64,000 nt of DNA from an uncultured bacterium (GTDB lineage Bacteria; Hydrothermota; Tepidihabitantia; B3-TA06; CAYQJV01), in NCBI GenBank assembly GCA_964417925.1, contig CAYQJV010000002.1, forward strand, positions 20,952-84,951. The letters are read 5' to 3'. This document shows, in pieces, positions 3-54,035 of this stretch. Position 1 is the first letter of the stretch. Every line of letters begins with the position of its first letter. A program made the position numbers and the translations under genes. The notes beneath the pieces are model-generated. The model was not told the DNA's origin. It searched no databases and worked only from the letters and a program-made list of their open reading frames with translations.

Positions 3-278
3 TACAATAAGTACAGAGAAAAAGGAATAGAGATAATAGGGATAGGAATAGATAAAAAGGAGACGCTTAAAAAGTTTAAAAAAGAAATGAGCATAAACTA
101 TACAGTACTTGTGGATGAAAAGGGAACTGTGGCAAAAATGTATGGAGTTAGAGGTATTCCCACAACTTATATTCTTGACAGAAAAGGAAGGATAGTAGAA
201 AGACATGTAGGATTTATGCCAGGAATGGAAAGGAAGTTTGTAGAAACTGTTGAAAAACTTCTTTTAGAAAATTATTGA
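3..278 (+). CDS. TlpA-like thiol-disulfide oxidoreductase, 5'-truncated by window edge
   Basis: Frame is open from base 3 (YNKYREKGIEIIGIGID...); C-terminal YGVRGIPTTYILDRKGRIV is the TlpA/redoxin cis-Pro motif. CxxC lies outside the window. Confidence 0.8.
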   Translation, partial: YNKYREKGIEIIGIGIDKKETLKKFKKEMSINYTVLVDEKGTVAKMYGVRGIPTTYILDRKGRIVERHVGFMPGMERKFVETVEKLLLENY

Positions 279-302
279 AAGTAAGAAGAAGGAGGTGATA
301 TT

Positions 303-1802: not shown

Positions 1803-2904
1803 TGCTGTAAAGGAAGCTTCTGGTCTATCTGACAAGACGTTGTCACGTTACTTTAGGGAGATAATGAAATATCCTTTACTTTCTCCAGAGGAAGAAAAAG
1901 CGCTTGCAAAAAGAGCGAGAGAAGGAGATATTGAAGCCAGAAACAAGTTAATTCTTCATAATTTGCGATGGGTGGTTAACATTGCAAAGCAGTATCAAAA
2001 CAGAGGACTTTCTCTTGCAGAACTTATTAATGAAGGAAACGCAGGGTTAATACAAGCTGTAATGAAGTATGATGAAAGAAAAAAAACACGCCTTACCACG
2101 TATTCAAACTGGTGGATAAGATATTACATAGTTTCTGCATTGTTAAATAGGAACTTAATAAAACTTCCATCTAAATACCGAAGAATTGCTAAAAAAATAA
2201 AGGACAGTTATCCAAGAATAAGTCAAAAGATAGGTAGAGAACCTTCTATAGAAGAGCTGGCAGAAGAATTAGGAGTAACACCTGAGGATGTTAGTTATGC
2301 CTTTAATTGCGGTATTTCTGAACTTTCTTTACAAGATACATCTTTTGATAATGGCAAGATTACTTATGAAGAGCTTATAGAAAATACTATTACTCCATCT
2401 CCTGAAAGAGAGTTGGTAAGAAAATCTTTAAGTAATAGTATTGCAAAGGCTGTGAAAAGGTATTTGAATCCAAGAGAACGGTATGTTCTCTTCAGGCATT
2501 TTGGAATTTCTTTTCCTGAAGAAAGTTTTAGTATAAAAGAGATTGCAGAGATGACCGGTAGAAAAGAAGAGGAAATAAAAACGGCTATTAAAGCCATTTT
2601 TAAAAAGATCCTTACCCAACAAAAAAATATAGATCTAAGGAAAAAGGAACTTAAAAAAGAAATATATGAAAATTATGATAAAGTTAAAAAGGTTCTTAAA
2701 GAGGTCAACCTCTTTGAAAGAGAAGTCTTTTTGCTATATACAGGACTTGTATCAGGAGAGGAACCCATGAATTTACGAGAGATAGGGGATGTTTTAGGAA
2801 TTACCAGAGAGGCTTCAAGACAGATTAAAGAAAAAGCATTATCAAAACTTAAAAAGGTAATAAATCCTCAAGATTTTCATACTTACTTTAGGGAGGAAAT
2901 ATAA
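1765..2904 (+). CDS. Sigma70-family sigma factor (group 2/3-like) with duplicated region 4
   Basis: Region 1.2 (YFREIMKYPLLSPEEE), region 2 (NLRWVVNIAKQY, EGNAGL, TYSNWWIR), region 3 (GREPSIEELAEEL), two region-4-like HTH segments; no region 1.1. Confidence 0.9.
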   Translation: MGKNGSSPSNQNDAVKEASGLSDKTLSRYFREIMKYPLLSPEEEKALAKRAREGDIEARNKLILHNLRWVVNIAKQYQNRGLSLAELINEGNAGLIQAVMKYDERKKTRLTTYSNWWIRYYIVSALLNRNLIKLPSKYRRIAKKIKDSYPRISQKIGREPSIEELAEELGVTPEDVSYAFNCGISELSLQDTSFDNGKITYEELIENTITPSPERELVRKSLSNSIAKAVKRYLNPRERYVLFRHFGISFPEESFSIKEIAEMTGRKEEEIKTAIKAIFKKILTQQKNIDLRKKELKKEIYENYDKVKKVLKEVNLFEREVFLLYTGLVSGEEPMNLREIGDVLGITREASRQIKEKALSKLKKVINPQDFHTYFREEI

Positions 2905-3551
2905 TGATTCTTTTTCTCTTCTCTGAGCTACTTTTTTATAATCTCTCCTATGGATTCATTCATGCAGGAAAATTGATCATGGAGAAAAAAGATACTGTAA
3001 TGAACAATGATACACTTATTTGTTTAATGTCTGTACTAACTTCAAATCCTTCTCTATCTTTTCTCTTTAAGATAAACGACACTTTAATTTCCATTACAGA
3101 TAAGAATATAAGACCTCTTTATTTTGAAAGAATAATTCATGAAGGAAGGTTTAATCTCCATGAGAGGATAAAATTTGATAGAGAGAGGGGAAAAATAATT
3201 TATAATACCGGCGAAGAGTTTCCTCTACCCAAGGACAATGTTTTTGATATTCTCTCCGTGTATTACTACTTAAGAAGTTTGAGACTTTCTCCTTCCTGTA
3301 CTACAGATATTTTTGTCCACGTATCCAAAAAAACAGAAAAATACAGAATTTTTGTTTCAGAAGTTTCTGGGGTAAAAGTAAAGGACAAGTATTACGAATG
3401 TTACAAAATAACTCCTATATTAATAAATGGGAAAGACCATGGGAAATTAATGATCTCTTATACAACAAGAGATGATAGGAAACTTCCTGTTTTACTTATT
3501 GCAAAGTTAGGCATAGGAAGTATAAAGGGGGAATTGGAAAAATGGGAATAG
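2904..3551 (+). CDS. DUF3108-like exported protein
   Basis: ELLFYNLSYGFIHAG start, DILSVYYYLR, and C-terminal LPVLL..KLGIGSIKGEL pattern resemble DUF3108. Confidence 0.65.
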   Translation: MILFLFSELLFYNLSYGFIHAGKLIMEKKDTVMNNDTLICLMSVLTSNPSLSFLFKINDTLISITDKNIRPLYFERIIHEGRFNLHERIKFDRERGKIIYNTGEEFPLPKDNVFDILSVYYYLRSLRLSPSCTTDIFVHVSKKTEKYRIFVSEVSGVKVKDKYYECYKITPILINGKDHGKLMISYTTRDDRKLPVLLIAKLGIGSIKGELEKWE

Positions 3552-4570
3552 CCTATGCAGTTATTTTAGCAGGAGGAAAAGGAGAGAGATTTTGGCCCTA
3601 TAGTACTACTAATAGACCAAAGCAGTTTTTAAAACTTTTTTCTCATAATTCTTTAATAAGGAATACTAAAGAAAGACTTTCAAGAATTATTCCTTTGGAT
3701 AGACAGATATATGTACTACGCGAGGATTTAGTTGGACTTCTTAAAAAGGAAATTCCTGAACTTAAAGATAAAAACATACTTAAAGAACCCTTAAGTAAAA
3801 ATACAGCTCCTGCAATCGCACTTTCTGCTTGGTATCTTAGAGATTTTTTGGATGCAGTAATGGTGGTCCTACCTGCTGATCATTACATAAAAAAAGTTAC
3901 ATCTTACAGGAAAGATTTAAGAAAAGCAATAAAAATTGCATCCAAGTACAACTCACTTGTTACATTTGGAATTACTCCTTCTTATCCTGCAACTGGATAT
4001 GGATATATAGAAGTGGGCGAAGAGATCGAAAAAAAGATTTTTAGAGTAAAAAGATTTACCGAAAAGCCTTCTTTAAGGACTGCAAAACAATATTTAAAAA
4101 AAGGAAATTACTTTTGGAATAGTGGTATGTTCGTATGGAGAGTAAAAACAATTCTTTCTGCTTTTGAAAAATACATGCCGGATTTATACAAATATCTTAA
4201 AAAAGTTAATTTTAACCAGAGAAAAACCATAGAGATGTTTTATAAAAAAGCCCCCAGTATATCCATAGATTACGGAATAATGGAAAAGGCAGAAAATATT
4301 ACAATGATAAAGGCAGACTTTATATGGGATGATCTTGGAAGTTGGCTTGCTGTAGAAAGGCATGGTAAAAAGATAGGGAAAAATACAGGGATAGGGAACT
4401 TTTACAGTTTAGATTCAGAAGGATGTATTGTAGTAAACGAAGACGGAGTAGTTGCAATACTTGGTGTGAAGAACTTAATTGTTGTGAAGTACAAAAACAA
4501 AATTCTGGTTGCTGATAAAAAAAGAGCAGAGGATGTAAAAAAAATAGCCAAAATTATTGAAAAAAGATGA
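3542..4570 (+). CDS. manC: Mannose-1-phosphate guanylyltransferase
   Basis: VILAGGKGERFWP, PKQF, KNTAPAI, PADH, TGYGYIE, WNSGMF, SIDYGIMEK, WDDLGSW. Confidence 0.93.
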   Translation: MGIAYAVILAGGKGERFWPYSTTNRPKQFLKLFSHNSLIRNTKERLSRIIPLDRQIYVLREDLVGLLKKEIPELKDKNILKEPLSKNTAPAIALSAWYLRDFLDAVMVVLPADHYIKKVTSYRKDLRKAIKIASKYNSLVTFGITPSYPATGYGYIEVGEEIEKKIFRVKRFTEKPSLRTAKQYLKKGNYFWNSGMFVWRVKTILSAFEKYMPDLYKYLKKVNFNQRKTIEMFYKKAPSISIDYGIMEKAENITMIKADFIWDDLGSWLAVERHGKKIGKNTGIGNFYSLDSEGCIVVNEDGVVAILGVKNLIVVKYKNKILVADKKRAEDVKKIAKIIEKR

Positions 4571-24516: not shown

Positions 24517-24870
24517 TGGAGGCGGCGGGATTCGAACCCGCGTCCGGAGTGGTCCGGCATCGAGGACTACATGGTTAGTCGCTGTTTTTATTTAACCCAG
24601 AAGGCGCCCAGCGACAGGCTCCTTCTGAGCGAGCCTCCTTAAGGATCCACCCTGGGATGGAGGCAGTCCCAGAGTTTCACCCAGGTGAATATTCCCCGGA
24701 TTACTTCCCCCTGGGCAAGGAAGCAACCGAGGTGCTGCCTTTCTAATTAGGCAGCAAGAGCGTAGTTGTAGTCGGCAGTTGTTTTTTCTACCGTGGGATT
24801 TACGAGGTCACGGTAGACCCTCGCCATGCCCTCTTAGCCTTCTACACTCCGTCGAATCCACATCGCCCCC
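24517..24870 (-). ncRNA. ssrA: tmRNA; tag peptide (A)ADYNYALAA at 24776..24747
   Basis: 5' GGGGGCGATGTGGATTCGAC, 3' GGGTTCGAATCCCGCCGCCTCCA with G3-U70 alanine determinant; internal ORF GCC GAC TAC AAC TAC GCT CTT GCT GCC TAA. Confidence 0.97.
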
Positions 24871-24875
24871 TTTTT

Positions 24876-24903
24876 ATTATAGTTAGTTTTTAGAAAAGGT
24901 CAA
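24876..24903 (-). promoter_or_regulatory. Sigma70 promoter TTGACC-16-TATAAT for ssrA
   Basis: -10 ends 5 nt before the tmRNA 5' end. Confidence 0.8.
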
Positions 24904-37715: not shown

Positions 37716-38237
37716 TTATATTTTTACTATCTTTGCCTTCCACTGCGTTGTGTCCAAGATCGCAACAGTAGGAGGATTATTATCTTTTGGTAAAGATGGG
37801 CTTCCTGGATTTATAAAAGTAACATTGTGTTTTTCTTCTATTAGAGGGATGTGAGAATGCCCACATATTACAACATCTGGTTTAATGCTTTTTACAATAC
37901 TTTCAAGTTCTTTTTCTTTATGACCGTGCATTGCAAGGATGCTTTTTCCATTGATATACAAAAACAATTTTTCACCGAGTAATGGAAAACTGAGTACCGT
38001 TTCATCTACTTCACTATCACAGTTTCCTTTTATCCACATGATTCTATAAGGTGAATTATTCAGAGATTCTACCAGTTTGGCAGGAGCATACCCTTGAGGA
38101 ATCGGATTTCTGGGACCATGATTTAAGATATCCCCTGCGTGAATGATAAAAGAAATTTTTTCATCTTTAAAGACCTTTAATGCTTTTTCCCATCCGGGGA
38201 ATGCTCCATGAGTATCGCTAATTATTCCTATTTTCAT
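37716..38237 (-). CDS. YfcE-like metallophosphodiesterase
   Basis: SDTHG, HAGD, GNCD, HGH, GHSH, NPGS. Confidence 0.92.
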   Translation of the reverse strand: MKIGIISDTHGAFPGWEKALKVFKDEKISFIIHAGDILNHGPRNPIPQGYAPAKLVESLNNSPYRIMWIKGNCDSEVDETVLSFPLLGEKLFLYINGKSILAMHGHKEKELESIVKSIKPDVVICGHSHIPLIEEKHNVTFINPGSPSLPKDNNPPTVAILDTTQWKAKIVKI

Positions 38238-38243
38238 AATGTT

Positions 38244-38272
38244 ATTTTATACATGATTCAAAAAGATGTCAA
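38244..38272 (-). promoter_or_regulatory. Sigma70 promoter TTGACA-17-TAAAAT, leaderless start
   Basis: ATG 6 nt downstream; MITE end 5 bp upstream of the -35. Confidence 0.8.
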
Positions 38273-38277
38273 CTTAT

Positions 38278-38541
38278 TGTAGAATTCCATAACATTTTGG
38301 CCACGAGGGGTTATTCTTTACCCATCCGTTCAAAAATCTATCAAACTCCTTCCCATTATCGGTCTGTCCCACTCCTTATCTTAAAAGGCACAACTTGCAT
38401 AAACTTCTCCATAAAATCTCTTGTACTTTATCTGCTCCTCTTTGTTTTTGGCGTCCGAGATAAAAAAACCAGCCCTTTGCCTTTGTCCATAAATTTACCT
38501 TTTTTCAAGATACCAATCCAATACCTTTTTGAAATTCTTCA
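38278..38541. mobile_element. IS481-like MITE copy 1 (264 bp)
   Basis: Near-identical to 41694..41956 and 50532..50978; imperfect TIRs TGTAGAATTCCA / TGAAGAATTTCA; minus strand encodes an rve-core remnant PFKIRS.QTDNGKEF. Confidence 0.85.
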
Positions 38542-38990
38542 GTAATTCCAAAACTCTTCGGTAAAGTGCTTAAAAAGGAGACAACAAGGGAAAAAGGATG
38601 GATATGGGATGAGGAGTCATTTTTCAGGGAAGTGGAGGAGAAAATCAAAGATGAGGAGATAAAGAATGTGATAAGAAGGTTGTATAAATTTGCCAAAAAA
38701 GGAAAGCTCTGATCCTCCCTTTCCTTTGCAACCATCGGTAGATGCAAGATTTACCTTCTATGTAAAAAGAGACTTCTGCCTTTTCAGAATAATGGTCTAT
38801 GGAAGCATTTATTTTTATGCACTGGGATTTCAGGCCGGAAAACTTAGAAAAATGCTTAATGAAATAGGTTTTGAAACTGAGGAAAAATGGAACGAAAAAG
38901 AAATCGGTCTTGACATATTTAAAGGGAAAAGTGTCTCTTGATGATTTCATAAATGTGGAGAAAAGATATAAGGAGGAGATGAGCATCTCT
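38542..38990 (+). pseudogene. 5'-truncated, frameshifted gene fragment
   Basis: Frame opens exactly at the MITE end (VIPKLFG...WDEESFFREVEEK...) and continues in another frame after the A-run near 38700; no start codon. Confidence 0.55.
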
Positions 38991-39040
38991 TGAAGGCATC
39001 CTATAGGGTTTCTTAAAGGCTTCGATGGATTTTAAAACTG

Positions 39041-39599
39041 AGACTGTTCGAAAAATCCTTTTATCCGATATTTTTCTCTCATAAAACCCAACTCACAACC
39101 CTCCAGCAACAGAAGATAGTAGAAACCACACAGAAGAAAAATAAAGAGAATATGCAAATTATACAATACAAAACCCCAATGCCATCTTCTCTGCTATCCC
39201 CTTATCTTCATAACCTCTATACTATCATAACACTTATCCGCCACCAAAACACCACCTATATTAACCTTCTTTATAAATTTTAAGGCATCCAATAACAACT
39301 TTACTTCACTTGCATACGGACCTCCAGAAGAAGCATCAACAATAACTCTTCTACCATCCGAAGTAAAAATTATAACAACACCCACCTTCCCCTGAGATTT
39401 TATGTTTCTTATCACCATGCTCCTGAAAAACTTTATTGGGTATATGTCATTATAATCTATATCATAATATATTGAGAGGAATGGGAGAGATGAAAATACT
39501 CATGAAGCTTTTCTAAAACTTCCCGATAGGACAATCCCCTTAAGACTTTATAAATATGCAAAAATTCCCCCAATGCAACTCTTATTTTTCGAACAGTCT
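39041..39599. mobile_element. IS5/IS4-superfamily non-autonomous remnant (559 bp)
   Basis: Perfect 16-bp TIR AGACTGTTCGAAAAAT; minus-strand transposase fragments including LVADKCYDS (DDE-type ADKGYDS motif); related to 53712..54035. Confidence 0.8.
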
Positions 39600-39611
39600 T
39601 CCTGCATTTTC

Positions 39612-39639
39612 TTGACACCACCGAGTTATAATGTATAAT
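39612..39639 (+). promoter_or_regulatory. Sigma70 promoter TTGACA-16-TATAAT
   Basis: Perfect hexamers upstream of V-ATPase subunit K. Confidence 0.8.
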
Positions 39640-39685
39640 AAAGAACTCCATGACTGATCAAAATAAATGTAAAAAGGAGGTGTAA

Positions 39686-40168
<483 letters not shown>

Positions 40169-40183
40169 ATCAAAGAGGAAAAA

Positions 40184-40714
40184 ATGGGAATAGAAAAAAT
40201 AATAGAAAAAATAAAAATAGATGCTGAAAATAAAATTAAAGAAATTGAGGAGTCCTATCGGAAAAAATATGAAGAAAATAAAAGAAAGTACGAAGAAATA
40301 ATTGCAGAGAAAAGAAAAAGTATTGAAAGAATGTGTAAAGAAAAAGAACAAGAAATCCTCAAGAATACAGAGATAAACGCAAAAATCAAGGCAAAACTTG
40401 ATATATTGAATGTAAAGCATAAAATAATCCAACAACTTATTGCCAATGTCATCAATCAATTCATAGCATCAGAAAGGTATAGAGAAATAATCATTGAAAT
40501 TGCCAAAAAATACGGTAATGAAGGAGAAATCATATCAGGACAAAGAGAGAAAGAATTTCTTAAATCTGCAGGAATTAATGCCTTTCAAAATGATGAAATT
40601 AAAGGAATAATTATTAAAAAGGGTAAATCATCCTATAATTTTACCATTGATTCTGCGTTAAGTACCTTAGAAGAAGATTTGAAATATGAGATAGGAAAAA
40701 TTCTTTTTGATTAA
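40184..40714 (+). CDS. V/A-type ATPase subunit E
   Basis: MGIEKIIEKI start, charged coiled coil, GIII..G...NFT and EIGKILF C-terminus; follows subunit K. Confidence 0.75.
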   Translation: MGIEKIIEKIKIDAENKIKEIEESYRKKYEENKRKYEEIIAEKRKSIERMCKEKEQEILKNTEINAKIKAKLDILNVKHKIIQQLIANVINQFIASERYREIIIEIAKKYGNEGEIISGQREKEFLKSAGINAFQNDEIKGIIIKKGKSSYNFTIDSALSTLEEDLKYEIGKILFD

Positions 40715-41652
40715 TCCTCTTCCTCTAACTCAGGGAAATCTTCCCGGGGCATTATTTTCACAGATTCTTTTTCTCTTATCTCTACTCCATTTTTTATTTC
40801 CTGAAGATTTATCAAGCCTTCTCTTAAATACTTTTTAAATTTTTTTTCATCAATTGTAACAATTCTATCCCATAACCCTATCTTTTTAAGAAAAGGAGCA
40901 AGGAGTTCAAGATTAAATTTATAAATTACATTTTTTAATATTCTTGCAACTCCTATTCTGGTAATTACTTTTTCTTCTCCTTTTTCTTTTAATTTTTCTA
41001 AAACAATTTTCTTAAGCTCTTCCATTCTTTTCTCAATCTTCTGTCTCTGGCTTCTTAAATCAAGGTATTCTTTTATAGTTTCTTCTAATCCTTTATCTAA
41101 GTATGGAAGAGATTCAAACTCAGGAGGTTCATATCCCTCCAATCTTATATACACAAAATTTCTACTTGCAATGAAATCTGCAATATGAAGTACCCATTGC
41201 TCCCTCGTCTTAGGCATTCTTACGGGTTCTATACCCCATCTTCCTTGATGGGTCTCAATTACATCCATAATTTCATCAAAATATGGGGTAAGATGGGATA
41301 TTTTTTTAAGATGTATTCTTGGATAAAAGGGATGTTCCTTATCTCCATGTCCTTCATCTTTTACTCCATGTTTATAGGAATCGTGAAGTATAGCAGCTGC
41401 TCTCACAATATCTAATCTTTCATTTTTTAAAAGAAAAACTTTTGCAAGTTCCTCTACAAGATAAAAAACCCTTAAAGTATGAAGTACCAATCCCCCTTCT
41501 CCAAGCGTATCCAAAGGATGGAACCTTCCAGAAGCAGAGGCAGGAATACGCCAAAAATAATCAGGTATGATTTTAAGCGCCTCTTCTACAAATCTTCTTA
41601 TAGTAGGCTCCTGTATTTTATTTATCTCTTTTGAAAAATCATATCTCTCCAT
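40711..41652 (-). CDS. HD-domain phosphohydrolase fused to a coiled-coil C-terminal domain
   Basis: YFWRIPASASGRFHP, LHT, ILHDSYK, THQGRW, LHIADFIASR, then about 140 extra residues. Confidence 0.8.
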   Translation of the reverse strand: MERYDFSKEINKIQEPTIRRFVEEALKIIPDYFWRIPASASGRFHPLDTLGEGGLVLHTLRVFYLVEELAKVFLLKNERLDIVRAAAILHDSYKHGVKDEGHGDKEHPFYPRIHLKKISHLTPYFDEIMDVIETHQGRWGIEPVRMPKTREQWVLHIADFIASRNFVYIRLEGYEPPEFESLPYLDKGLEETIKEYLDLRSQRQKIEKRMEELKKIVLEKLKEKGEEKVITRIGVARILKNVIYKFNLELLAPFLKKIGLWDRIVTIDEKKFKKYLREGLINLQEIKNGVEIREKESVKIMPREDFPELEEED

Positions 41653-41660
41653 ATTTTAAA

Positions 41661-41688
41661 AAGATAATTAAAATAAAAAAGAAGTCAA
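41661..41688 (-). promoter_or_regulatory. Sigma70 promoter TTGACT-16-TATCTT
   Basis: ATG 8 nt downstream; MITE end 5 bp upstream of the -35. Confidence 0.65.
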
Positions 41689-41693
41689 CCTAT

Positions 41694-41956
41694 TGAAGAA
41701 TTTCAAAAAGGTATTGGATTGGTATCTTGAAAAAAGGTAAATTTATAGGTAAAGGCAAGGGTTTTAGTCCCTTTATCCGGGCGCCAAAAACAAAGAGGAA
41801 GGATAAAGTGCGAGGAATCTTATGGAGAAGTTTATGCAGGTTGTGCCTTTTAAGATAAGGAGTGGGACAGACCGATAATGGGAAGGAGTTTGATAGATTT
41901 TTGAACGGATGGGTAAAGAATAACCCCTCGTGGCCAAAATGTTATGGAATTCTACA
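41694..41956. mobile_element. IS481-like MITE copy 2 (263 bp, inverted relative to copies 1 and 3)
   Basis: Reverse complement of copy 1 with substitutions; same termini. Confidence 0.85.
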
Positions 41957-41961
41957 AAAGA

Positions 41962-41990
41962 TTGACATTTTATGCATAAAAGAATATAAT
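41962..41990 (+). promoter_or_regulatory. Sigma70 promoter TTGACA-17-TATAAT, leaderless start
   Basis: Perfect consensus; ATG 7 nt downstream; MITE end 5 bp upstream. Confidence 0.85.
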
Positions 41991-41997
41991 TTTTGGA

Positions 41998-43617
41998 ATG
42001 CAGAATAAATTAGTTTTTTCTCTACTTTTGTTAGCGTTTGTATTTTCGGTACCTTCTTTGTTTATGTATTTTGTTTCAGAAGATTTGGTGTCTATTGTCC
42101 CTGAAGCTAATTTTGTAACACGATTAAAATCTATATGGAGTGGAGATATTCTCAAAAATGCAGGATTTTATAGACCTATTTCTCTTACTTCCTTATTAGT
42201 AGACTATAAACTATGGGGATTATCCTCTGTAGGATTTCATTTTACTAATTTATTATTTCACATTGCTTGTGTAGTAACTGTCTATTTTTTTATCTTTTAT
42301 TTGTTTAACGATTATAGAATCGCTTTATTATCCTCTTTAATATTTATTTTGCATCCTATTCATACCTATAACCTTTACTGGATAAGTGGAAGAGGCGATA
42401 TGATAGCTACTTTGTTTTATATTTTATCATTAATCTTTATGATGGAATTTTTAAAAAAACAGCAAGATAAGTTTATTGTTTTTACAATATTATTTGCAGT
42501 ATTAGGTATCTTAGGAAAAGAAACAGTGATAACCATTCCTTTAGCGTGGTTATGGATATACATTTTTTTGAAAAATAAAAACAATGTGCAGAAGATGAGA
42601 TTAAAGGTGTTGTTTTTAATAATTGTATTTATTTTTATTTTTTTGATTTTAAGATTCTTAATACTTAAAGGAAGTTTTAATATACCAGGCATTTATAAAT
42701 ACTTTAATGTTTCTTACTATTTTAAAAATATTTTAAAATTAACCGGTTTTTTAACTATTCCCTTTGGCTATGAGTTTTTTGAACTTTTATACAGCAAATA
42801 TCCTGCAATTTTTTTAAGTACTGCAATTGTTTGTGTTTTTGGAATGATAATTTTTTTCTATTTTGTGTGTAGGAAAGATAAAGCTTTCTTTTATATTTTA
42901 ATATTTTTTATAATTATTACTTTGCCTTTTTTTCAACTGGTGATGAGATGGTACCTTTACCTTCCTTCTGTGGGTTTTTCTCTTTTTATAGGATATTTAA
43001 TTTATAAAGTGAAGAGAGGTAAAAAAAGATATGGACGCATCATTTTAGGAATTTATCTTTTTTTATGTGTTATAGGATATATGTACTATACCTATGTATG
43101 GTACCTTAATAGTAATTTTAACAAAGAACTTATAAAAAAAATAATCATGTTGATGAAACAGCACAGAGATAAAAAGTATTTTTACATAGTAAATCTACCT
43201 GCTAAAATATACCGATGCCCTACTTTTGGATATGGTTTTGAACATACGGTAAGACTTTTTAATGAAGATACCTTTCAGTGTCTGGATCGTATTGTGAGGA
43301 CTTCTCATCAATACGGTTATCACTCATGCAATTACAAAGTTAAACCCGATGGTATTGAGTTGTGGTTTGATAATCCAAATTCCTATTTTTTACTTCCAGT
43401 AAGAAAATACATTTTAGGAGAAGCAGGCTTAAAAATAGGAAGGAAAGTTGACGTTCCACTGTTTTGGGATACTGTGACAGTTTCTGTGCTAAATAATCAT
43501 CCTAATAACAAGGTAAAGCATGTAAAGATTTTTTACACGCCAAGAATGCTTCAAAAAGATTGTATGGTAGTTATATTTTATAAAAAGAATTACAAAATAA
43601 TACATCCACAAAATTGA
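41998..43617 (+). CDS. GT-C superfamily membrane glycosyltransferase (TMTC/ArnT-like N-terminus)
   Basis: YRPISLTS, FHFTNLLFH, FILHPIH...WISGR, LGKE, RWYLYLP; many TM segments. Confidence 0.75.
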   Translation: MQNKLVFSLLLLAFVFSVPSLFMYFVSEDLVSIVPEANFVTRLKSIWSGDILKNAGFYRPISLTSLLVDYKLWGLSSVGFHFTNLLFHIACVVTVYFFIFYLFNDYRIALLSSLIFILHPIHTYNLYWISGRGDMIATLFYILSLIFMMEFLKKQQDKFIVFTILFAVLGILGKETVITIPLAWLWIYIFLKNKNNVQKMRLKVLFLIIVFIFIFLILRFLILKGSFNIPGIYKYFNVSYYFKNILKLTGFLTIPFGYEFFELLYSKYPAIFLSTAIVCVFGMIIFFYFVCRKDKAFFYILIFFIIITLPFFQLVMRWYLYLPSVGFSLFIGYLIYKVKRGKKRYGRIILGIYLFLCVIGYMYYTYVWYLNSNFNKELIKKIIMLMKQHRDKKYFYIVNLPAKIYRCPTFGYGFEHTVRLFNEDTFQCLDRIVRTSHQYGYHSCNYKVKPDGIELWFDNPNSYFLLPVRKYILGEAGLKIGRKVDVPLFWDTVTVSVLNNHPNNKVKHVKIFYTPRMLQKDCMVVIFYKKNYKIIHPQN

Positions 43618-43641
43618 CAAATTAAAATATTTAGTTATCTT
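43614..43641 (+). promoter_or_regulatory. Sigma70 promoter TTGACA-16-TATCTT (tRNA-Ser)
   Basis: Ends 9 nt before the tRNA. Confidence 0.7.
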
Positions 43642-43650
43642 TATAAATGA

Positions 43651-43740
43651 GGAGAGGTGCCCGAGCGGCCGAAGGGGCACGACTGGAAATCGTGTGTACG
43701 CCTAAAAGGCGTACCGTGGGTTCGAATCCCACCCTCTCCG
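43651..43740 (+). tRNA. tRNA-Ser(GGA)
   Basis: GGAGAGG/CCTCTCC acceptor, CACGA-CTGGAAA-TCGTG anticodon arm, long variable arm; no CCA encoded. Confidence 0.96.
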
Positions 43741-43780
43741 TTTAAATGTCGGTATTATTTTCCGTATAATTCTATAGCAT

Positions 43781-43856
<76 letters not shown>

Positions 43857-43857
43857 G

Positions 43858-44391
43858 ATGGAAAAGAAAGTAAAACTTTATAAATTAATCTCAGAGGAAG
43901 AGATAGAAAGAAAGGTGACAGAACTGGGTAGAAAAATATCTGAAGACTACAAAGGTAAGACTCCCCTTTTGGTTGGGGTATTAAAAGGCGCATGGGTTTT
44001 TCTTGCAGATCTTGTTAGAAAGATAAGTATTCCAATAACATGTGATTTTCTTCAGGTGTCAAGTTATGGTACAGGTACAGAAACAACAGGAGTGGTGAAG
44101 ATAGTATCTGATTTAACATCTCCTATAGAGGGGAAAGATGTAATAATAGTTGAAGATATTGTAGATACAGGGCTTACACTTCAGTATTTAATTGAAATGC
44201 TTGAACTGAGGAGGCCTAATTCTATAAAAATATGTGCTTTGCTTGATAAACCTGCCAGGCATAGGGTGGAGATAAAAATTGATTATCTTGGGTTTAAAAT
44301 TCCCAACAAGTTTGTTGTAGGGTATGGTATAGATTGGGCAGAAAAATACAGAAATCTTCCCTATATAGGATACATTGAATTTGAGGAATAA
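43858..44391 (+). CDS. hpt: Hypoxanthine phosphoribosyltransferase
   Basis: GVLKGA, SSYG, IIVEDIVDTGLT, LLDKP, FVVGYGID.AEKYRNLPYI. Confidence 0.96.
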   Translation: MEKKVKLYKLISEEEIERKVTELGRKISEDYKGKTPLLVGVLKGAWVFLADLVRKISIPITCDFLQVSSYGTGTETTGVVKIVSDLTSPIEGKDVIIVEDIVDTGLTLQYLIEMLELRRPNSIKICALLDKPARHRVEIKIDYLGFKIPNKFVVGYGIDWAEKYRNLPYIGYIEFEE

Positions 44392-44836
44392 ACTTGTAAT
44401 TGGAGTAATAGGAGCTTCCTCCTGTGATGAATTTCTTGGTAGTGTTGCAGAAAAAACAGGAAGATTGATAGCAGAGAATGGATGGATACTTATTACTGGT
44501 GGAATGGGTGGAGTAATGGAGTATGCTTCTAAAGGAGCAAAAAGTAAAAATGGTCTTGTTGTTGGGATAATTCCCTCTGATAAAAAGGATGATGGTAATC
44601 CATATATGGATATTAAAATAATTACAGGCATGAATGAAGCGAGAAACCAGATAATTGTTTTATCTGCAGATTTTTTAATAGCAATTGGAGGAGGTTATGG
44701 AACTCTTTCTGAAATTGCTTTCGGACTTAAAAGAGAAAAATATATTTTTGGAATCAATACATGGGAAATAGAAGGAGTAAAAAAAGTAAATACACCAGAA
44801 GAGGCAATAGAAAGGATAAAGGAGTTGATAAAATGA
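44375..44836 (+). CDS. TIGR00725-family (LOG/SLOG-like) protein
   Basis: IGVIG, TGGMGGVME, TGMNEARN, GGGYGTLSEI. Confidence 0.88.
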   Translation: MNLRNKLVIGVIGASSCDEFLGSVAEKTGRLIAENGWILITGGMGGVMEYASKGAKSKNGLVVGIIPSDKKDDGNPYMDIKIITGMNEARNQIIVLSADFLIAIGGGYGTLSEIAFGLKREKYIFGINTWEIEGVKKVNTPEEAIERIKELIK

Positions 44837-45120
44837 AGGAGAGAAGGGCAAAGATCATTGTTAAAGGATTTGTTCAAGGGGTGGGGTACAGATATTTTAC
44901 AGAAAGAACAGCAAAAGAGTATGGACTTACAGGATATGTAAAAAATCTCACAAATGGAAATGTGGAAGTGGTAGTGGAAGGAGATGAGGGGTTAATACTG
45001 TCATTTATAGAGAGGCTTAGAATAGGCCCAAGGCTTGCAAAGGTTACAGATATTCAGGTTGAATGGAGTGAACCTACTTATGAGTTTGATGATTTCAAAA
45101 TAAAGTTTGAATGGGATTGA
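44833..45120 (+). CDS. acyP: Acylphosphatase
   Basis: GFVQGVGYRY, GYVKNL.NG.VE, GPRLA.V; ATG at 44833 overlaps the upstream TGA. Confidence 0.94.
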   Translation: MKERRAKIIVKGFVQGVGYRYFTERTAKEYGLTGYVKNLTNGNVEVVVEGDEGLILSFIERLRIGPRLAKVTDIQVEWSEPTYEFDDFKIKFEWD

Positions 45121-45419
45121 TTATTTTTCTTGTTGTATCCGACAGCGTAAAAACTCCTATTTGTGATTCTTGGATTGGAGAAGATAAGTTATACCATTTT
45201 GTGGTGTCATCTTTTATGACAGGAGCATTTTACCATTTATTTTATTGTAAAATGAACTTAAAGCATTCTAAAGCAGTCTATTTTTCTGTAGGAACTGTAA
45301 TTTCAACAGGGATTTTTAAAGAACTATGGGATAAGAAAAAGGGAAGATTTTTTAGTTACAAAGATATGGTTTTTAATCTTGCAGGAATAACCGCAGGCTA
45401 CTTTATCTTTATGCGATGA
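45111..45419 (+). CDS. YfiM/VanZ-like small membrane protein
   Basis: DSWIGEDKLYHF, KELWD, FSYKD...N.AG. Confidence 0.7.
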   Translation: MGLIIFLVVSDSVKTPICDSWIGEDKLYHFVVSSFMTGAFYHLFYCKMNLKHSKAVYFSVGTVISTGIFKELWDKKKGRFFSYKDMVFNLAGITAGYFIFMR

Positions 45420-46312
45420 TGAACTTGATTTATGAAATTCAAAAGATAAAGAAAGAAAGAAATATAGCAATAGTTGCTCACAACTATCAAATACCTGAAA
45501 TTCAAGATATAGCAGATTTTGTAGGAGACTCTTTGGAACTTGCAAGGATAATAAAAAAGCTTTCCAATAAGATTGTTATTTTCTGTGGCGTAAAATTTAT
45601 GGCAGAAACAGCAAAGATTCTTTCCCCGGATAAAAAAATTCTTATTCCTTCCTTAGATGCAGGATGTCCTCTTGCAGATTCAATAAGTAGAAAACAGCTT
45701 TTGGAGTTTAAAAAGAAATTTAGGAATGCAACAGTTGTAACTTACGTGAATACCAATGCGGATGTAAAGGCAGAATCAGATGTTTGCTGTACTTCTGCCA
45801 ATGCAGTTGAAATTGTAAAAAAAACTTCAGCCAATAAGATTCTGTTTGTACCCGATAGAAATCTCGCTCATTTTGTTGCCAAAAATTCAGAAAAAGAGGT
45901 AATCCCATGGGATGGGTACTGTCCAGTACACGAAAAGATAAAAAAAGAGGATATTTTAAAGTTAAAAAACAAATATCCAGAGGCAGAGATAATGGTGCAT
46001 CCTGAATGTATACCTCAGGTGCAGGAAATTGCAGATAGAATATTAAGCACAGGGGATATGATAAAGTATGCAAAAGAATTAAACACAAATACTTTTATTG
46101 TAGGCACAGAAGAGGGAATAATTCATAGATTGAAAAAGGAAAATCCCTTTAAAAAATTTATTCCTGCAAGAGAAGACTTAATATGCGAAGATATGAAAAA
46201 AATAACTCTTGAAAATCTTTATTTTTCTTTAAAAAATGAAGTATATGAAATAAAAGTTGAAGAGGAAATGCGGAAGAAAGCTCTTTCTTCTATAGAAAGG
46301 ATGATTGAGTAA
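45416..46312 (+). CDS. nadA: Quinolinate synthase
   Basis: VAHNYQ, FCGVKFMAE, AGCPLA, YVNT, GYCPVH, HPEC, CEDMKK. Confidence 0.96.
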   Translation: MMNLIYEIQKIKKERNIAIVAHNYQIPEIQDIADFVGDSLELARIIKKLSNKIVIFCGVKFMAETAKILSPDKKILIPSLDAGCPLADSISRKQLLEFKKKFRNATVVTYVNTNADVKAESDVCCTSANAVEIVKKTSANKILFVPDRNLAHFVAKNSEKEVIPWDGYCPVHEKIKKEDILKLKNKYPEAEIMVHPECIPQVQEIADRILSTGDMIKYAKELNTNTFIVGTEEGIIHRLKKENPFKKFIPAREDLICEDMKKITLENLYFSLKNEVYEIKVEEEMRKKALSSIERMIE

Positions 46313-46316
46313 TTTT

Positions 46317-47681
46317 TTACTTCCATTTCTCTCTTTCAAGCAATTCTTTGAGAATCTCAAATCCCTCTTCTTTTGTTTTAATTTTACCTTCTTTTTGTAA
46401 CTCTTCAAGTTCTTCAAGCAAAATTTTATATACAGGGCCTGGAGGAATTCCAAACTCCATCAAATCATAGCCCGTTATCAATCTTTTAAAACTTTTTTCT
46501 TTTTCATCTTTTTCCTTAATTTCAAATATCTTTTTTATCGTATATTCAAGATGTTCGGTTTTGCCTGCTGTTGCAAATCCATCTGCCAAGTCTAAAATCA
46601 TTATTCCTACTGCATCTTCACCGGTTATTCTTAAAAATCTTCTTATCGCTCTTTCTGTCAATTCAGGAGCTGTGGCAATTAAATGAAGATGCATATGTCT
46701 TTCAACCATGTTTTTAACGCTTTTTACTTCTTTTACAGGGAGTCTTAATGCTTCTTTCAACATTTTTTCTGTAAGTTTTGCCCCTTTGACGTCGTGTCCA
46801 TAAAAATGGTAGGTCCCTTCCTCAGTTTCAATCCTTGTATCAGGTTTTGCAATATCGTGGAAAAGAGATGCAAGTTTTATAAGTGCTTTTCTTCTTTTTT
46901 CAATCCCAGAGAAGTATTTTTGAAAATTATTGTTGAAATGCCCATTTTTTAGTATTCTCTCTGCCCCAAGATATACAAGTAAACTATGAGATAAAACTTC
47001 TCTATCCTCAAAAAACCTTTTTGCCTTTTCAAATATTTCCTGTAGTAATCCTATTTCTATCATCTTTGATATGAATGGGTAGGAAAAATCTGTTTCAAGT
47101 ATACGCATAAATTCATAGCCTATTCGTTCTTTTGCGATTTTTTTAACAGATACCTGAATCATCTGATAATATACCCATTCTGGAATGTTAAATCCAAGTT
47201 CTGCAGAAAATCTAAATGCTCTGAGGACCCTTAGTGGATCATCCTTAAAACTTCTTTCTGAAACAGGGATTATAGATTTATGTTGAAGATGTTTTATTCC
47301 TCCAAAATAATCTAAAAATCTATACTCATTTTTTAAAAAAAGATTAAGTTTTATTGCAATTGCATTTATAGTAAAGTCTCTTTTTTTAAGATCTTCTTCT
47401 ATGTTTTCTTTAAACCCTTTAAAATCAAATACATAACTTTTTTTATACACTACCCTTGCTTCATCATCCTTTTCGCTTAATAATACAAATGCCCCTTTTA
47501 TTTTGCTCGCTATTTTTTTGGCTGTCTTTATCCCATTTCCTTTTACTGCAAAATCAAAATCAAGAGGAGAAATTCCCAGTAAAGTGTCCCTAATTGCTCC
47601 TCCTACAAGATAAATTTCTTTGTTTTCTTTTTCTATCTCTTTTAAAATTTCTATTACATCTTGGGGAATACTGGGCTTCAT
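46317..47681 (-). CDS. Class II tRNA nucleotidyltransferase with HD domain, probably CC-adding
   Basis: [38 protein letters not shown]; flexible loop region very short. Confidence 0.85.
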
Positions 47682-50494
47682 ACTTCCTCTAAAACTTTTT
47701 TCAAAAATTTGCCCGTATAAGAGTTTCGGTTTTTAACAATTTCTTCTGGAGGTCCCTCTGCAACGATATATCCTCCTTCATCTCCACCTTCTGGTCCTAA
47801 ATCTATTATCCAATCAGCACACTTTATAACTTCCATGTTATGTTCTATAACTATTACTGTGTTACCTTTATCAACGAGTCTTTGTAAAACATTTAATAAA
47901 AGCTTTATGTCTTCAAAATGTAATCCTGTTGTTGGTTCATCAAGAATGTATATTGTATTTCCCTTAGGTAATTTTGAAAGTTCTTTTGCAAGTTTCACTC
48001 TTTGAGCTTCACCTCCAGAAAGGGTAGGGGCTGGTTGACCAAGTTTTATGTATCCAAGTCCAACATCTTTTAATAACTTCAGTTTTCTTTCGATTTGAGG
48101 AATATCGGAAAAGAAGTCATATGCTTCATCAACAGTCATGTCAAGCACATCTGCGATATTTTTCCCTTTATATCTTACTTCAAGAGTTTCTCGGTTGTAT
48201 CTTTTTCCTTTACACACCTCACAGGGGATGTAAACAGGAGGTAAAAAATGCATTTCTATTTTAAGCATTCCCTCCCCACCACATCTTTCACATCTTCCAC
48301 CCCTTACATTGAAAGAAAATCTTCCTGGTTTATATCCTCTTATTCTTGCTTCTTTTGTCATTGCAAACAACTCTCTTATTGGAGTAAAGGCTCCTGTATA
48401 TGTTGCAGGATTGGACCTTGGAGTTCTTCCTATTGGAGATTGATCTATATTTATTACCCTATCAATTAATTCAATTCCTATTATTTCATCATGCTCACCT
48501 GGTTTTTCTGTAGTGCGGTAGAATCTTTCTGCAAGGGCCCTATAAAGTATATCGTTTATAAGCGATGATTTTCCTGAACCAGATACTCCGGTAACGCATA
48601 CAAATAGTCCAAGAGGAATTTTTACATCTATGTTTTTTAAATTATTATGCCTTGCCCCTTTTATAATAATGTATTTCCCTTTTGGTGTTCTTCTTTTTCT
48701 GGGGATAGGAATTTTTCTCTTTCCTGAGAGATATGCTCCTGTGAGAGATTTTCCATTCTTTGCAATTTCAGAAGGTGTTCCCTCCACAACTATCTTTCCT
48801 CCCTTCTCGCCTGCTCCTGGACCGAGGTCAATTACCCAGTCAGCAGAAAGTATTGTATCTCTGTCATGTTCAACCACTACCACCGTATTTCCAAGGTCTC
48901 TTAATTTTTTGAGGGTATTTAAAAGTCTTTTGTTATCCCTCATGTGAAGACCTATGGTAGGTTCATCTAAGATATATATAACCCCAACAAGTCCTGAACC
49001 TATTTGAGTTGCGAGCCTTACTCTCTGTTCTTCTCCTCCTGCAAGGGTCTCTGTAGTCCTGTCAAGGGTTAAATAGCCGACCCCAACCTCCTTTAAAAAA
49101 GATAGTCTTGCCTTTATTTCTTTTATTACTTCATATGCAATTTTCTGTTGAACTTCGGTTAATTTGAGATTTTCAAAAAATTTATAGGCATCCTCTACAG
49201 ACATTTTTGTAATATCATATATATTTTTCCCTTCTATTTTTACAGAAAGTGCTTCAGGTTTAAGCCTTGCTCCCTTGCAGGCAGGACATGGAAGTTTTCG
49301 CATAAACTGTTCTATATATTCTCTTCTTGCTTCGGATTCAGTCTCTTTATGGAGTCTTTCAAGATTTCTTACAACTCCTTCGTAATATTCATAACCCTCG
49401 TAGATGGATGTTCCTGTATATTTCACTTTAACCGGTTCATCTGCCCCATAGAGGATTATTTTTTTTGCATGTTCAGGAAGGTCCTTCCATGGAGTATCAA
49501 GAGAGAATTTATATTTTTTTGCTACTGCTTCAAGCATTGCAAGCAACCATCCTCTGGGTTCTCCCCAAGGTTCTATAACTCCATCAAGAATTGATAGCCT
49601 TGGATCAAGTATTATGAGTTCAGGGTCTATTTCCATTTTCGTTCCAAGCCCGTGGCATACCGGACATGCTCCATATGGAGAATTGAAGGAAAAAAGTCTT
49701 GGAGAAATCTCTTCATAAGAAAATCCACATTTTACACATGCCAAGGCTTCGCTGAATACTTTTTCTTCTTTATCATTAATTATAATGCTACATAAACCTT
49801 CTCCTTCCTTTAATGCAAGTTCTATTGAATCTGCAAGTCTCTTTCTTATTTTTTCTTTCAGGATTATTCTATCTATCACAACATCTATCTTGTGAATTTT
49901 GTATCTTTCAAGTTTTGGAGGGTTATCAAGTTCATACAGTTTTCCATCAACCCTTACCCTTACATATCCCTGTCTTTTTAATTTTTCAAAAAGTTCCCTA
50001 TATTCTCCTTTTCTTCCTTTTACTTTTGGAGCAAGGATAACAAGTTTGGTCCCTTCATCTAAAGACAATAAAGAATCAACGATTTGATCAACGGTTTGAG
50101 AGGAAAGCGGTATATTGCAGTTTGGGCAGAAAGGAGTTCCTATTCTTGCAAAAAGTACTCTCAGATAGTCGTATATCTCAGTTACAGTGGCAACAGTGGA
50201 TCTTGGATTCCTCGCAGATGTTCTTTGTTCTATTGCAATTGCAGGAGATAATCCCTCTATAAAGTCAACATCCGGCTTCTCAAGCATTCCCATAAATTGT
50301 CTTGCATATGTTGAAAGAGACTCTACATATCTTCTTTGACCTTCTGCATATAAAGTGTCAAAAGCAAGAGAAGACTTTCCTGAACCAGAAATTCCAGTAA
50401 TTACAACAAGTTTATTTCTTGGTATTTTAACCTCAATATTTTTTAAATTGTGTTCTCTTGCTCCTTTTATGAAAATGTAGTTCTTCATAAACAT
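47678..50494 (-). CDS. uvrA: Excinuclease ABC subunit A
   Basis: GAREHNLKN, two GxSGSGKS Walker A motifs, zinc fingers, [20 protein letters not shown]. Confidence 0.98.
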
Positions 50495-50496
50495 AT

Positions 50497-50526
50497 ATAT
50501 TAAAACAAAAATTTCAAAAAAGTCAA
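50497..50526 (-). promoter_or_regulatory. Sigma70 promoter TTGACT-18-TAATAT (uvrA)
   Basis: MITE end 5 bp upstream of the -35; start codons 2 and 8 nt after the -10. Confidence 0.6.
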
Positions 50527-50531
50527 TCTTT

Positions 50532-50978
50532 TGTAGAATTCCATAACATTTTGGCCGCGAAGTTTATTCTTTACCCATCCGTTCAAAAATCTATCAAACT
50601 CCTTCCCATTATCGGTCTGTCCCACTCCTTATCTTAAAAGGCACAACCTGCATAAACTTCTCCATAAGATTCCTCGCACTTTATCCTTCCTCTTTGTTTT
50701 TGGCGCCCGAGATAAAGGAACTAAAACCCTTGCCTCATAATTACCTTCTCTTAACCTCTTCATCCATAAGTAAACCGTGGAACGAGCAACCCCAAAAGCA
50801 TTCTCTGTAGCCTCCCTACCGTACTTCCTAAAGAAACTTATCACCTTTCTCCTCCATTCCACCACCTTCCTCTCCTTATCACTCAAACCCTCCATTCCTT
50901 TCACTCTCATAGCTTTATTTTACCCATAAATTTACCTTTTTTCAAGATATCAATCCAATATCTTTTTGAAATTCTTCA
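50532..50978. mobile_element. IS481-like MITE copy 3 (447 bp) retaining the transposase N-terminal HTH (50629..50910, minus)
   Basis: Same termini as copies 1 and 2 plus about 183 bp encoding WRRKVISFFRKYG...FGVARSTVYLWMKRLREG...LSRAPK. Confidence 0.88.
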
Positions 50979-53711: not shown

Positions 53712-54035
53712 GAGAGTGTTCGAAAAATTCTCATTGCCTATCGTAAAAAAATCACCAATGACTTTTATATTTCTCATTACCATGCCCTTGAAAAACTTTA
53801 TTGAATATATGTTATCATAACCTATATCCCTGGATCATCTGCTATCCAAACCCTTAAATTAAAAATAACTTTCTGCAATAGTTTCTTAGAAAGTCTTTTG
53901 ATTCGGGAAATGATATGTTGAGAGGAATGGGAGAGATGAAAAGACCCTGTGGGCTTTTCCAAAACTTCCAACTCTCAAAACTTTAAAAATATGCAAAAAT
54001 TCCCCCAATGTAGCTCTTATTTTTCGAACACTCTC
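53712..54035. mobile_element. IS5/IS4-superfamily MITE (324 bp)
   Basis: Perfect 17-bp TIR GAGAGTGTTCGAAAAAT; shares internal blocks (TTGAGAGGAATGGGAGAGATGAAAA; AATATGCAAAAATTCCCCCAATG) with 39041..39599. Confidence 0.8.

Follow-up and report, generated by a model that had tools for sequence, protein, structure and literature searches.

In this study we analysed a 64-kb stretch of DNA (64,000 nucleotides; henceforth 'the window') from an uncultured bacterium of the Hydrothermota (GenBank assembly GCA_964417925.1, contig CAYQJV010000002.1, forward-strand positions 20,952 to 84,951) and found that three short repeats within it each end 5 nucleotides (nt) upstream of the -35 hexamer of a predicted sigma70-type promoter. 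The repeats, at 38278-38541, 41694-41956 and 50532-50978 (the coordinates in a first-pass annotation of the same DNA were exact), carry broken pieces of one transposase and therefore are, as judged by their sequence, internally deleted, non-autonomous derivatives of an IS481-like insertion sequence (IS), that is, miniature inverted-repeat transposable elements (MITEs). We consider, with a probability of about 80%, that these MITEs derive from an IS481-like clade whose members integrate at sigma70-type promoters in a fixed register and orientation. The anatomy of the elements, their register and orientation, the 5-bp target-site duplication of full-length relatives, the presence of the hexamer before insertion and the promoter-shaped target consensus were all observed directly.

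Results

Three MITEs with right ends at a constant distance from a -35 hexamer

The orientation of each MITE was set by its transposase remnant, with IRL denoting the left and IRR the right terminal inverted repeat, the latter at the 3' end of the transposase gene. Copy 1 (38278-38541, 264 bp, minus strand) has its IRR tip at 38278 and its IRL tip at 38541 and is 92% identical to copy 2 (41694-41956, 263 bp, plus strand), in which the IRL, TGAAGAATTTCAAAAAGGTATTGG, occupies 41694-41717 and the IRR, CCAAAATGTTATGGAATTCTACA, has its last base at 41956. Copy 3 (50532-50978, 447 bp, minus strand) is a longer deletion derivative that retains the transposase N-terminus, with ~180 bp more of the 5' part of the transposase gene than copies 1 and 2; the first ~80 amino acids of its open reading frame (ORF) at 50629-50910 (minus strand) form a helix-turn-helix (HTH) with weak matches to Pfam HTH_28 and HTH_32. 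The IRR tip in the window ends ...GGAATTCTACA and reads TGTAG... inward, the IRL reads TGAAG..., and the two repeats match at 17 of 24 positions with TG...CA tips, which fits the 5'-TGT/TG...CA terminal inverted repeats of the IS481 family. Exactly three occurrences each of the 21-nt IRR end (0.04 expected) and of the 29-nt IRL end (0.00 expected) were found in the window. The last 25 nt of the IRR are invariant among the three copies and conservation stops sharply at ...ACA. The transposase pieces are frame-broken and comprise MRVKGMEGLSDKERKVVEWRRKVISFFRKYGREATENAFGVARSTVYLWMKRL... (the HTH, in copy 3 only), ..MEKFMQVVPFKIR.., ..QTDNGKEF.. and the C-terminal ..AKMLWNST. With a length of 263-447 bp, no intact ORF, the terminal inverted repeats of an IS and multiple copies, the repeats have the properties of MITEs.

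Reading outward from all three IRR tips, we found 5 nt followed by TTGAC(A/T), 17-18 nt, TAnnnT and an ATG. Beside copy 1 the promoter (38244-38277, minus strand; 11 of 12 consensus matches) consists of ataag (38273-38277), TTGACA (38267-38272), 17 nt and TAAAAT (38244-38249), with the ATG at 38237 after a further 6 nt; the gene downstream (37716-38237, minus strand) encodes a YfcE-like metallophosphoesterase (Pfam Metallophos_2, E = 1.4e-30). Beside copy 2 (41957-41990, plus strand; 12 of 12 matches) we found aaaga (41957-41961), TTGACA (41962-41967), 17 nt, TATAAT (41985-41990) and, 7 nt on, the ATG at 41998 of a gene (41998-43617, plus strand) for a membrane glycosyltransferase of the GT-C type (Pfam PMT_2). 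The promoter beside copy 3 (50497-50531, minus strand) reads aaaga (50527-50531), TTGACT (50521-50526), 18 nt and TAATAT (50497-50502) and precedes uvrA (47678-50494, minus strand; identity read from the translation), the first ATG of which (50494) lies 2 nt past the -10 hexamer and the second in-frame ATG (50488) 8 nt past it; the true start is probably the second ATG.

The first-pass annotation had placed TTGAC at a fixed 5-nt offset from both types of end. This was the case for all three IRR ends in the window and for one of the three IRL ends, that of copy 2, where a promoter on the minus strand (41661-41693) reads atagg (41689-41693), TTGACT (41683-41688), 16 nt, TATCTT (41661-41666), 8 nt and the ATG at 41652 of a gene encoding an HD-domain protein (Pfam). 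Near the IRL tips of copies 1 and 3 TTGAC is absent. Since TTGAC occurs 70 times on both strands of the 64-kb window (5.5e-4 per position), its presence at one fixed offset from four of six ends would be expected by chance with a probability of about 1e-12. About 20 strong promoter-like sites were detected across the window, and two of the three best promoter matches in 38150-42100 adjoin MITE ends. The part of the claim that concerned the IRR thus held; at the IRL of copy 2, the best reading is a pair of divergent promoters standing back to back.

The fixed distance is kept by further copies in the window genome and in a related genome

Four public sequencing runs, one from a hydrothermal-vent metagenome and three from a coded 'organism A', contain the window genome. 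Read depth in these runs was 8-36 over single-copy DNA and 150-3600 over the MITE ends, that is, about 15-80 times single copy, which indicates tens of copies in the window genome. Other IRR junctions in the runs read ctcac-TTGACT, ttttc-TTGAC, atttt-TTGACT and aaaga-TTGACA-t... with several different continuations, one of which proceeds to TATAAT-6-ATG, and every other resolved IRR junction reads N5-TTGAC. At the IRL tip, depth drops exactly there to single copy and the flanks share nothing. A related metagenome-assembled genome (MAG), CAZUTC01 (the same population as Ga0190286), contains diverged copies with an IRR ending ...GGAATTCTGCA, and its three complete copies are followed by aaacc-TTGACA, gtttc-TTGACA-16-TATAAT and gtttc-TTGACA-17-TATAAT. 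The first-pass annotation had named other genomic copies at variable distances from TTGAC as a finding that would count against its proposal; the further junctions in the runs and the MAG all keep the distance, and the fixed offset is a property of the IRR end in every MITE copy that we saw. A scan of genome contigs with a degenerate IRL/IRR pattern returned the one related MAG and chance matches and did not recover the window's own genome, and the same scan of metagenomes returned the same MAG population and chance matches. One contig of single-copy depth in run X1 (window 50522-50977) joins a MITE IRL end to GTCAATCTTT and an IRR, so that two MITE copies stand head to tail with only aaagaTTGA(C) between them; this pair may represent a tandem dimer, or else a second copy may have inserted into a promoter that was already occupied.

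Full-length relatives duplicate 5 bp directly upstream of the -35 hexamer

With the N-terminus of copy 3 as query, an exhaustive HMMER search returned 260 relatives (best 62% identity), and a profile search returned 784 family members. In the full-length relatives P0026 and P0043, a single ORF encodes the domains rve, rve_3 and HTH_32. The best NCBIfam match of the relatives was IS481 (158-190 bits versus at most 97 bits for IS3), and these scores lie below the curated IS481 cut-off (NF033577, 224 bits); the NCBI annotation pipeline (PGAP) labels both ISKpn28 and the related Escherichia coli element described below as 'IS481 family transposase'. Together with the transposase pieces in the MITEs, these results bear out the earlier assignment to an IS481/rve-type transposase, and by sequence the parent clade of the MITEs is a divergent clade of the IS481 family.

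We examined the ends of relatives from Dehalogenimonas alkenigignens, Dehalogenimonas sp. WBC-2, two metagenomes, one MAG and a Nitrosophilus labii plasmid, as well as those of ISKpn28 (in Klebsiella plasmids and a Klebsiella phage) and of a 1096-bp ISKpn28-related element of E. coli. Of 5426 complete E. coli genomes, 1420 carry the latter, the maximum being 38 copies per genome, and the ISKpn28-type element also occurs on about 2000 enterobacterial plasmids. The IRL and IRR of the relatives align with the MITE ends in the same register and have TGT or TGC tips. A perfect 5-bp duplication flanks 17 of 21 full-length relatives, and its right-hand copy is the 5 nt between the IRR tip and the -35-like hexamer. 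Written as duplication, IS, duplication, hexamer, spacer length and -10, the junctions include gtcgg-IS-gtcgg-TTGCCA-18-TATACT, atgat-IS-atgat-TTGACA-17-TAATCT, cccca-IS-cccca-TTGACA-17-TAACAT, aataa-IS-aataa-TTGACT-18-TAAAAT and tctgc-IS-tctgc-TTGATG-17-TAGAAT-6-ATG; further examples are cctcc-IS-cctcc-TTGCAA at plasmid hok, atcaa-IS-atcaa-TTGGCT-17-TACCAT at sthA, ctgtg-IS-ctgtg-TTGATT-17-TAACCT at hokA, gctgt-IS-gctgt-TTGAAT-17-TATAAT in the dinQ region and, for ISKpn28 in Klebsiella phage KpF5 (OR327748.1; L068/L069), gagta-IS-gagta-TTGAAA-17-TAAATT. In the phage record, the final 141 nt of the IS occur again across the record ends, which is probably an artefact of assembly or permutation.

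Pooling 23 junctions from full-length or truncated relatives with six from MITEs gave 29 distinct IRR junctions. TTG is present at +6 to +8 after the IRR tip in 24 of them, and in 20 the hexamer is followed by TAnnnT at exactly 17 nt (~1.6% would be expected for unrelated sequence of even composition), most of the remaining junctions fitting with spacers of 16 or 18 nt. By position, the commonest bases were T at +6 (27 of 29), T at +7 (26), G at +8 (25), A at +9 (18) and C at +10 (17), and, further out, T at +29 (23), A at +30 (21) and T at +34 (21). The target is thus the whole of a sigma70-type promoter: a -35 TTGaca, a 17-nt spacer and a -10 TAnnnT. As a negative control, a DNA-pattern scan of viral contigs returned 15 chance matches to the IRR pattern, none with an inverted partner and none with TTG at +6. 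Two insertions in E. coli interrupt genes and have perfect duplications, one in a Rha-family prophage gene (TTGATT-17-TACACT) and one in a gene for a protein with Ig-like domains (TTGACT-17-TAACAT). Since these intragenic insertions obey the same pattern, the survival of harmless insertions is not the whole explanation.

The hexamer lies outside the duplication and is therefore target DNA and not part of the element. We rebuilt three empty sites as the left flank with a single 5-mer joined to the right flank (400 nt), and other records match each of them at 100% identity along the full 400 nt with the hexamer already there: plasmid hok (at least 722 records at 99% identity or more), sthA and the Ig-like-domain gene (intact in, for example, Nissle 1917). 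The absence of the -35 box from empty sites had been put forward as the observation that would overturn promoter-guided insertion; among the relatives, all three empty sites carry the hexamer.

The sites of ISKpn28 and the E. coli element comprise hokA, hokB, hokD, plasmid hok, dinQ, sthA, a phage genome and two gene interiors. Adjacency to hok-family genes or dinQ recurs (E. coli L071, L073, L075, L076, L077 and L081; plasmid L038 and L041), and the hok sites of the ISKpn28-type element include a hok next to cas3/cysH. The position of the element at hok loci is that expected for insertion at a putative antisense (sok-type) promoter. Some duplications at hok sites, (C/T)CTCC, match the complement of the Shine-Dalgarno sequence upstream of the hok/mok reading frame. 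At three plasmid sites (L045, L046 and L047), ISKpn28 keeps the hok-side flank at its IRL and the DNA beside its IRR is lost (~185 bp at L047); these look like IS-adjacent deletions that would have removed the targeted promoter.

The target often supplies the stop codon of the transposase gene

Within the element, the transposase ORF of the clade contains no stop codon. Its reading frame passes through the IRR tip as ...W-T-x-T, with the terminal ACA as a codon, and continues through two codons made up of the 5-mer and the first T of the hexamer to the in-frame TGA of TTGAnn, such that the called gene ends 9 nt past the IRR tip in L033, L035, L039, L066 and L067. Where the hexamer is TTGCnn, the ORF runs on. 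The window retains this arrangement: copy 2 (41936-41965) keeps the frame, and its remnant transposase ends on the TGA inside TTGACA. The RefSeq pseudogene flag 'missing C-terminus' on some E. coli copies is probably due to the stop codon being borne by the target.

Proposed insertion mechanism and alternative explanations

The junctions of full-length members show that the target is cut with a stagger of 5 bp abutting the -35 hexamer on its upstream side (at about -40 to -36) and that the element enters with its IRR facing the -35, giving the order IRR tip, 5 nt, TTGnnn, ~17 nt and TAnnnT. The core promoter and its gene would be spared and only DNA upstream of the -35 (an UP-element or activator region) displaced, making the site a safe harbour. 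The same reaction would have brought the window MITEs to their sites, a parent element providing the transposase in trans.

We weighed this reading against explanations in which the promoter plays no part in the choice of site. The first-pass annotation had itself considered that TTGAC might belong to the element, in which case the unit would end ...TACA-N5-TTGAC and form hybrid promoters wherever it landed ~17 nt upstream of a -10-like sequence. The aaagaTTGAC(A) that follows the IRR in copies 2 and 3 and in a third to half of the other copies in the genome is in keeping with this, as is the frequency of -10-like hexamers in DNA of 34% GC (TAnnnT at 16-18 nt for 25 of the 70 TTGAC sites in the window), and there are no duplications by which the ends of the MITEs could be recognised. 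Nevertheless, the duplications of the relatives and the three empty sites contradict it, the MITE ends align base for base with the relatives' TG...CA tips, at least seven different 5-mers follow the IRR while the IRL has no such extension, and an element-borne -35 would still require insertion in the exact register of a -10. We therefore regard an element-borne -35 as very improbable. Equally hard to credit is that insertion was random or AT-biased and that the pattern reflects the survival of copies that spared genes and core promoters. Intragenic insertions would indeed be purged from a compact genome, and its intergenic DNA is dense in promoters (about 20 sites in 64 kb), but selection cannot yield a single-base register and one orientation in 24 of 29 junctions from at least five host groups; moreover, the IRL flanks are patternless and the two gene-disrupting E. 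coli insertions, with their perfect duplications, keep both promoter boxes.

A closer competitor accepts the target and differs in how it is read: the transposase might recognise the -35 (TTGac) alone, without RNA polymerase, the -10 signal arising as most surviving TTGACA sites are real promoters. The transposase has N-terminal HTH domains, the hexamer in the MITE lineage is almost invariantly TTGAC, and the insertion point (-41/-36) falls within DNA that, at a bound promoter, is in contact with sigma region 4 and the alpha C-terminal domain, meaning that an occupied site could be difficult to access. Against it, TAnnnT stands exactly 17 nt past the hexamer even at both intragenic sites, where there is no selection for promoter function, and the tolerated hexamers (TTGCCT, TTGAAA, TTGATT, TTGGCT and TTGATG) vary as sigma70 -35 boxes do, with mainly TTG kept. 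Recognition of the -35 alone is, in our judgement, a real possibility but not the probable one. Because the -10 at 17-nt spacing is also conserved, even inside genes, we lean slightly towards recognition through promoter-bound RNA polymerase or sigma70 and away from a transposase that reads the DNA directly; the pairing of a -35 with a -10 at exactly that spacing lends indirect support to the possible contact with RNA polymerase or sigma proposed in the first-pass annotation.

Several observations weigh against integration of the window MITEs at promoters by the mechanism set out above. No intact parent of the MITE lineage was found in the protein collections. All six complete MITE copies, three from the window and three from the MAG, lack a matching duplication of 5 bp, ttttc/gtttc being the nearest to a match, and aaaga, the IRR-side 5-mer in about 30-55% of the copies in the window genome, is absent at about 20 MITE-free promoters in the window; such uniformity would not be expected from independent insertions. 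The empty sites of the three window insertions were not recovered by nadA synteny (the nearest relative has a NadA of 72% identity and the neighbourhood is unconserved), and the activity of the promoters flanking the window copies is a prediction from sequence. Among the relatives there are exceptions, namely L043 (AAGCGA), L042 (TGTCAA), L070 (TTGCA inside the duplication), L078 (rearranged and without the hexamer) and L045-L047 (rearranged beside the IRR). Finally, the sok-type promoters that make up many of the sites in E. coli and Klebsiella are paralogues of one another, which makes the 29 junctions less than fully independent in sequence.

With respect to the missing parent, a composite of the MITE-encoded peptides as query returned only two remnants, P0001/L027 and P0002, that were longer but broken, and an exact-sequence lookup of the spurious MITE ORFs gave no match.

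Absent duplications and a uniform 5-mer at the MITEs

As the first-pass annotation had noted, no duplication is visible in the window: the flanking 5-mers (IRL/IRR) are attac/ataag for copy 1, cctat/aaaga for copy 2 and ttttc/aaaga for copy 3. In the MAG, two of the three copies have gtttc on the IRR side. The 5-mer aaaga is absent from about 12 IRL flanks, and ttttc is found at three IRL flanks and also precedes a native TTGACA at 39607-39617. Our best guess is that gene conversion among copies might account for both the absent duplications and the uniform 5-mer. Homologous sequence flanks the IRR-side 5-mer on both sides, as the IRR and as TTGACA with a T-rich spacer, so that the 5-mer could be co-converted, and the IRL side, with no flanking homology, would keep its original copy of the duplication. 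A second possibility is intramolecular transposition, which would re-join the IRR to a new promoter with deletion of the intervening DNA. Two further candidates were rejected: recombination between copies fits poorly, as it would only shuffle the 5-mers and yet aaaga is common at the IRR and missing from those IRL flanks, and if the 5 nt were a spacer inherited from a transposition circle, the -35 would stand at 10 nt and not at the observed 5 nt.

Leaderless genes and other features of the window

The first-pass annotation had described the flanking promoters as driving leaderless genes. In the window, the distance of 6-8 nt between -10 and ATG is consistent with this, but elsewhere the targets are not all leaderless: some genes have Shine-Dalgarno leaders, and elements also occur at antisense sok promoters and at a promoter that closely precedes a tRNA-like sequence. 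Genes that look leaderless, with an ATG 5-8 nt after a consensus -10 and no Shine-Dalgarno sequence, start at 38237, 41652, 41998, 50488, 51092 and ~53660 (minus strand), and other genes in the window have long leaders with AAGGAGG; the host organism thus seems to use both kinds of start.

The window also contains a tmRNA gene (24517-24870, minus strand; tag peptide ADYNYALAA) with a consensus promoter, TTGACC-16-TATAAT, at 24903, and four tRNA genes, of which those for Ser and Pro (43651-43855) lie directly downstream of the PMT_2 gene. A second repeat family is represented at 39398-39599 and 53763-54034 (83-90% identical over about 200 bp). Its first member lies in a stretch of broken ORFs (38.6-39.65 kb) that adjoins the IRL of copy 1, and a 74-amino-acid ORF in this stretch contains a ..ADKCYDS.. 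motif reminiscent of IS4/IS5-type transposases, although a Pfam search gave no match. A comparison of the NadA encoded in the window (45416-46312) with 5.8 billion proteins gave a closest match of 72% identity, followed by matches of at most 61%, the named matches including Aerophobetes, Omnitrophica and Dictyoglomus; judged by this protein, the host organism is phylogenetically isolated.

Discussion

Few transposons pick harmless sites by a functional landmark, the classic cases being Tn7 at attTn7 and TnGBS upstream of promoters. We think it somewhat more probable than the opposite that a widespread IS481-like clade uses sigma70 promoters as its address, reading the -35, the 17-nt spacer and the -10, probably through RNA polymerase or sigma70, and inserting with a 5-bp stagger flush with the -35, its transposase gene always pointing in and often ending on a borrowed TGA. 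On the same footing, the clade would span a vent thermophile, Chloroflexota, Campylobacterota, and Klebsiella and E. coli (ISKpn28 and its relative), and in the window organism MITE derivatives would have colonised tens of promoters.

The elements share with the IS481 family, including ISKpn28, a single-ORF rve-type DDE transposase of ~360 amino acids with an N-terminal HTH, TG...CA ends, a length of ~1.1 kb and a 5-bp duplication, and public records list ISKpn28 as IS481-like. For IS481 itself, the duplicated target is 6 bp long, NCTAGN. The members studied here are promoter-targeted, have a fixed orientation and often a target-supplied stop codon, and score under the 224-bit cut-off. We found no description of promoter or -35 targeting, fixed orientation or stop-codon borrowing for ISKpn28 or IS481 members in full-text searches of the literature (ISfinder and TnPedia lay outside this search, and earlier knowledge is possible). 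It therefore appears that promoter targeting is undescribed for the IS481 family, as a known mode of targeting in a new family and register.

The mode of insertion resembles that of TnGBS, which transposes 15-17 bp upstream of sigmaA promoters (PMC3942029). TnGBS/ISLre2 elements likewise have DDE transposases and insert upstream of sigmaA/sigma70 promoters without damage; however, their transposase is Mutator-like (p-MULT), whereas that found here is of the rve/IS481 type and places the elements outside that group, and they insert 15-17 bp upstream of the promoter whereas the 5-bp duplication here directly abuts the -35. Insertion sequences that form hybrid promoters with an outward -35 in the IS end resemble the present elements in having a -35 beside the IS end, spaced to a -10 and driving a neighbour, but the -35 here is target DNA that lies outside the duplication and is present in empty sites, which sets these elements apart from them. 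As for the MITEs, they are like Correia elements, RUP and MITEAba12 in being short, non-coding and intergenic, in having inverted repeats and tens of copies and in originating by internal deletion of an IS; in contrast to these, the window MITEs are fixed in position and orientation relative to promoters and have no matching duplications.

If this reading is correct, the clade would constitute a second, unrelated family of promoter-finding transposases, with single-base precision, and thus a tractable system for studying how a transpososome recognises a promoter or RNA polymerase. It would also explain the pile-up of elements at the antisense (sok-type) promoters of hok toxin loci, and would draw attention to insertions that, as a class, rewire the sequences preceding promoters. 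The results further suggest that such elements could help to map promoters in organisms for which transcript data are lacking, such as the deep-branching vent bacterium from which the window derives.

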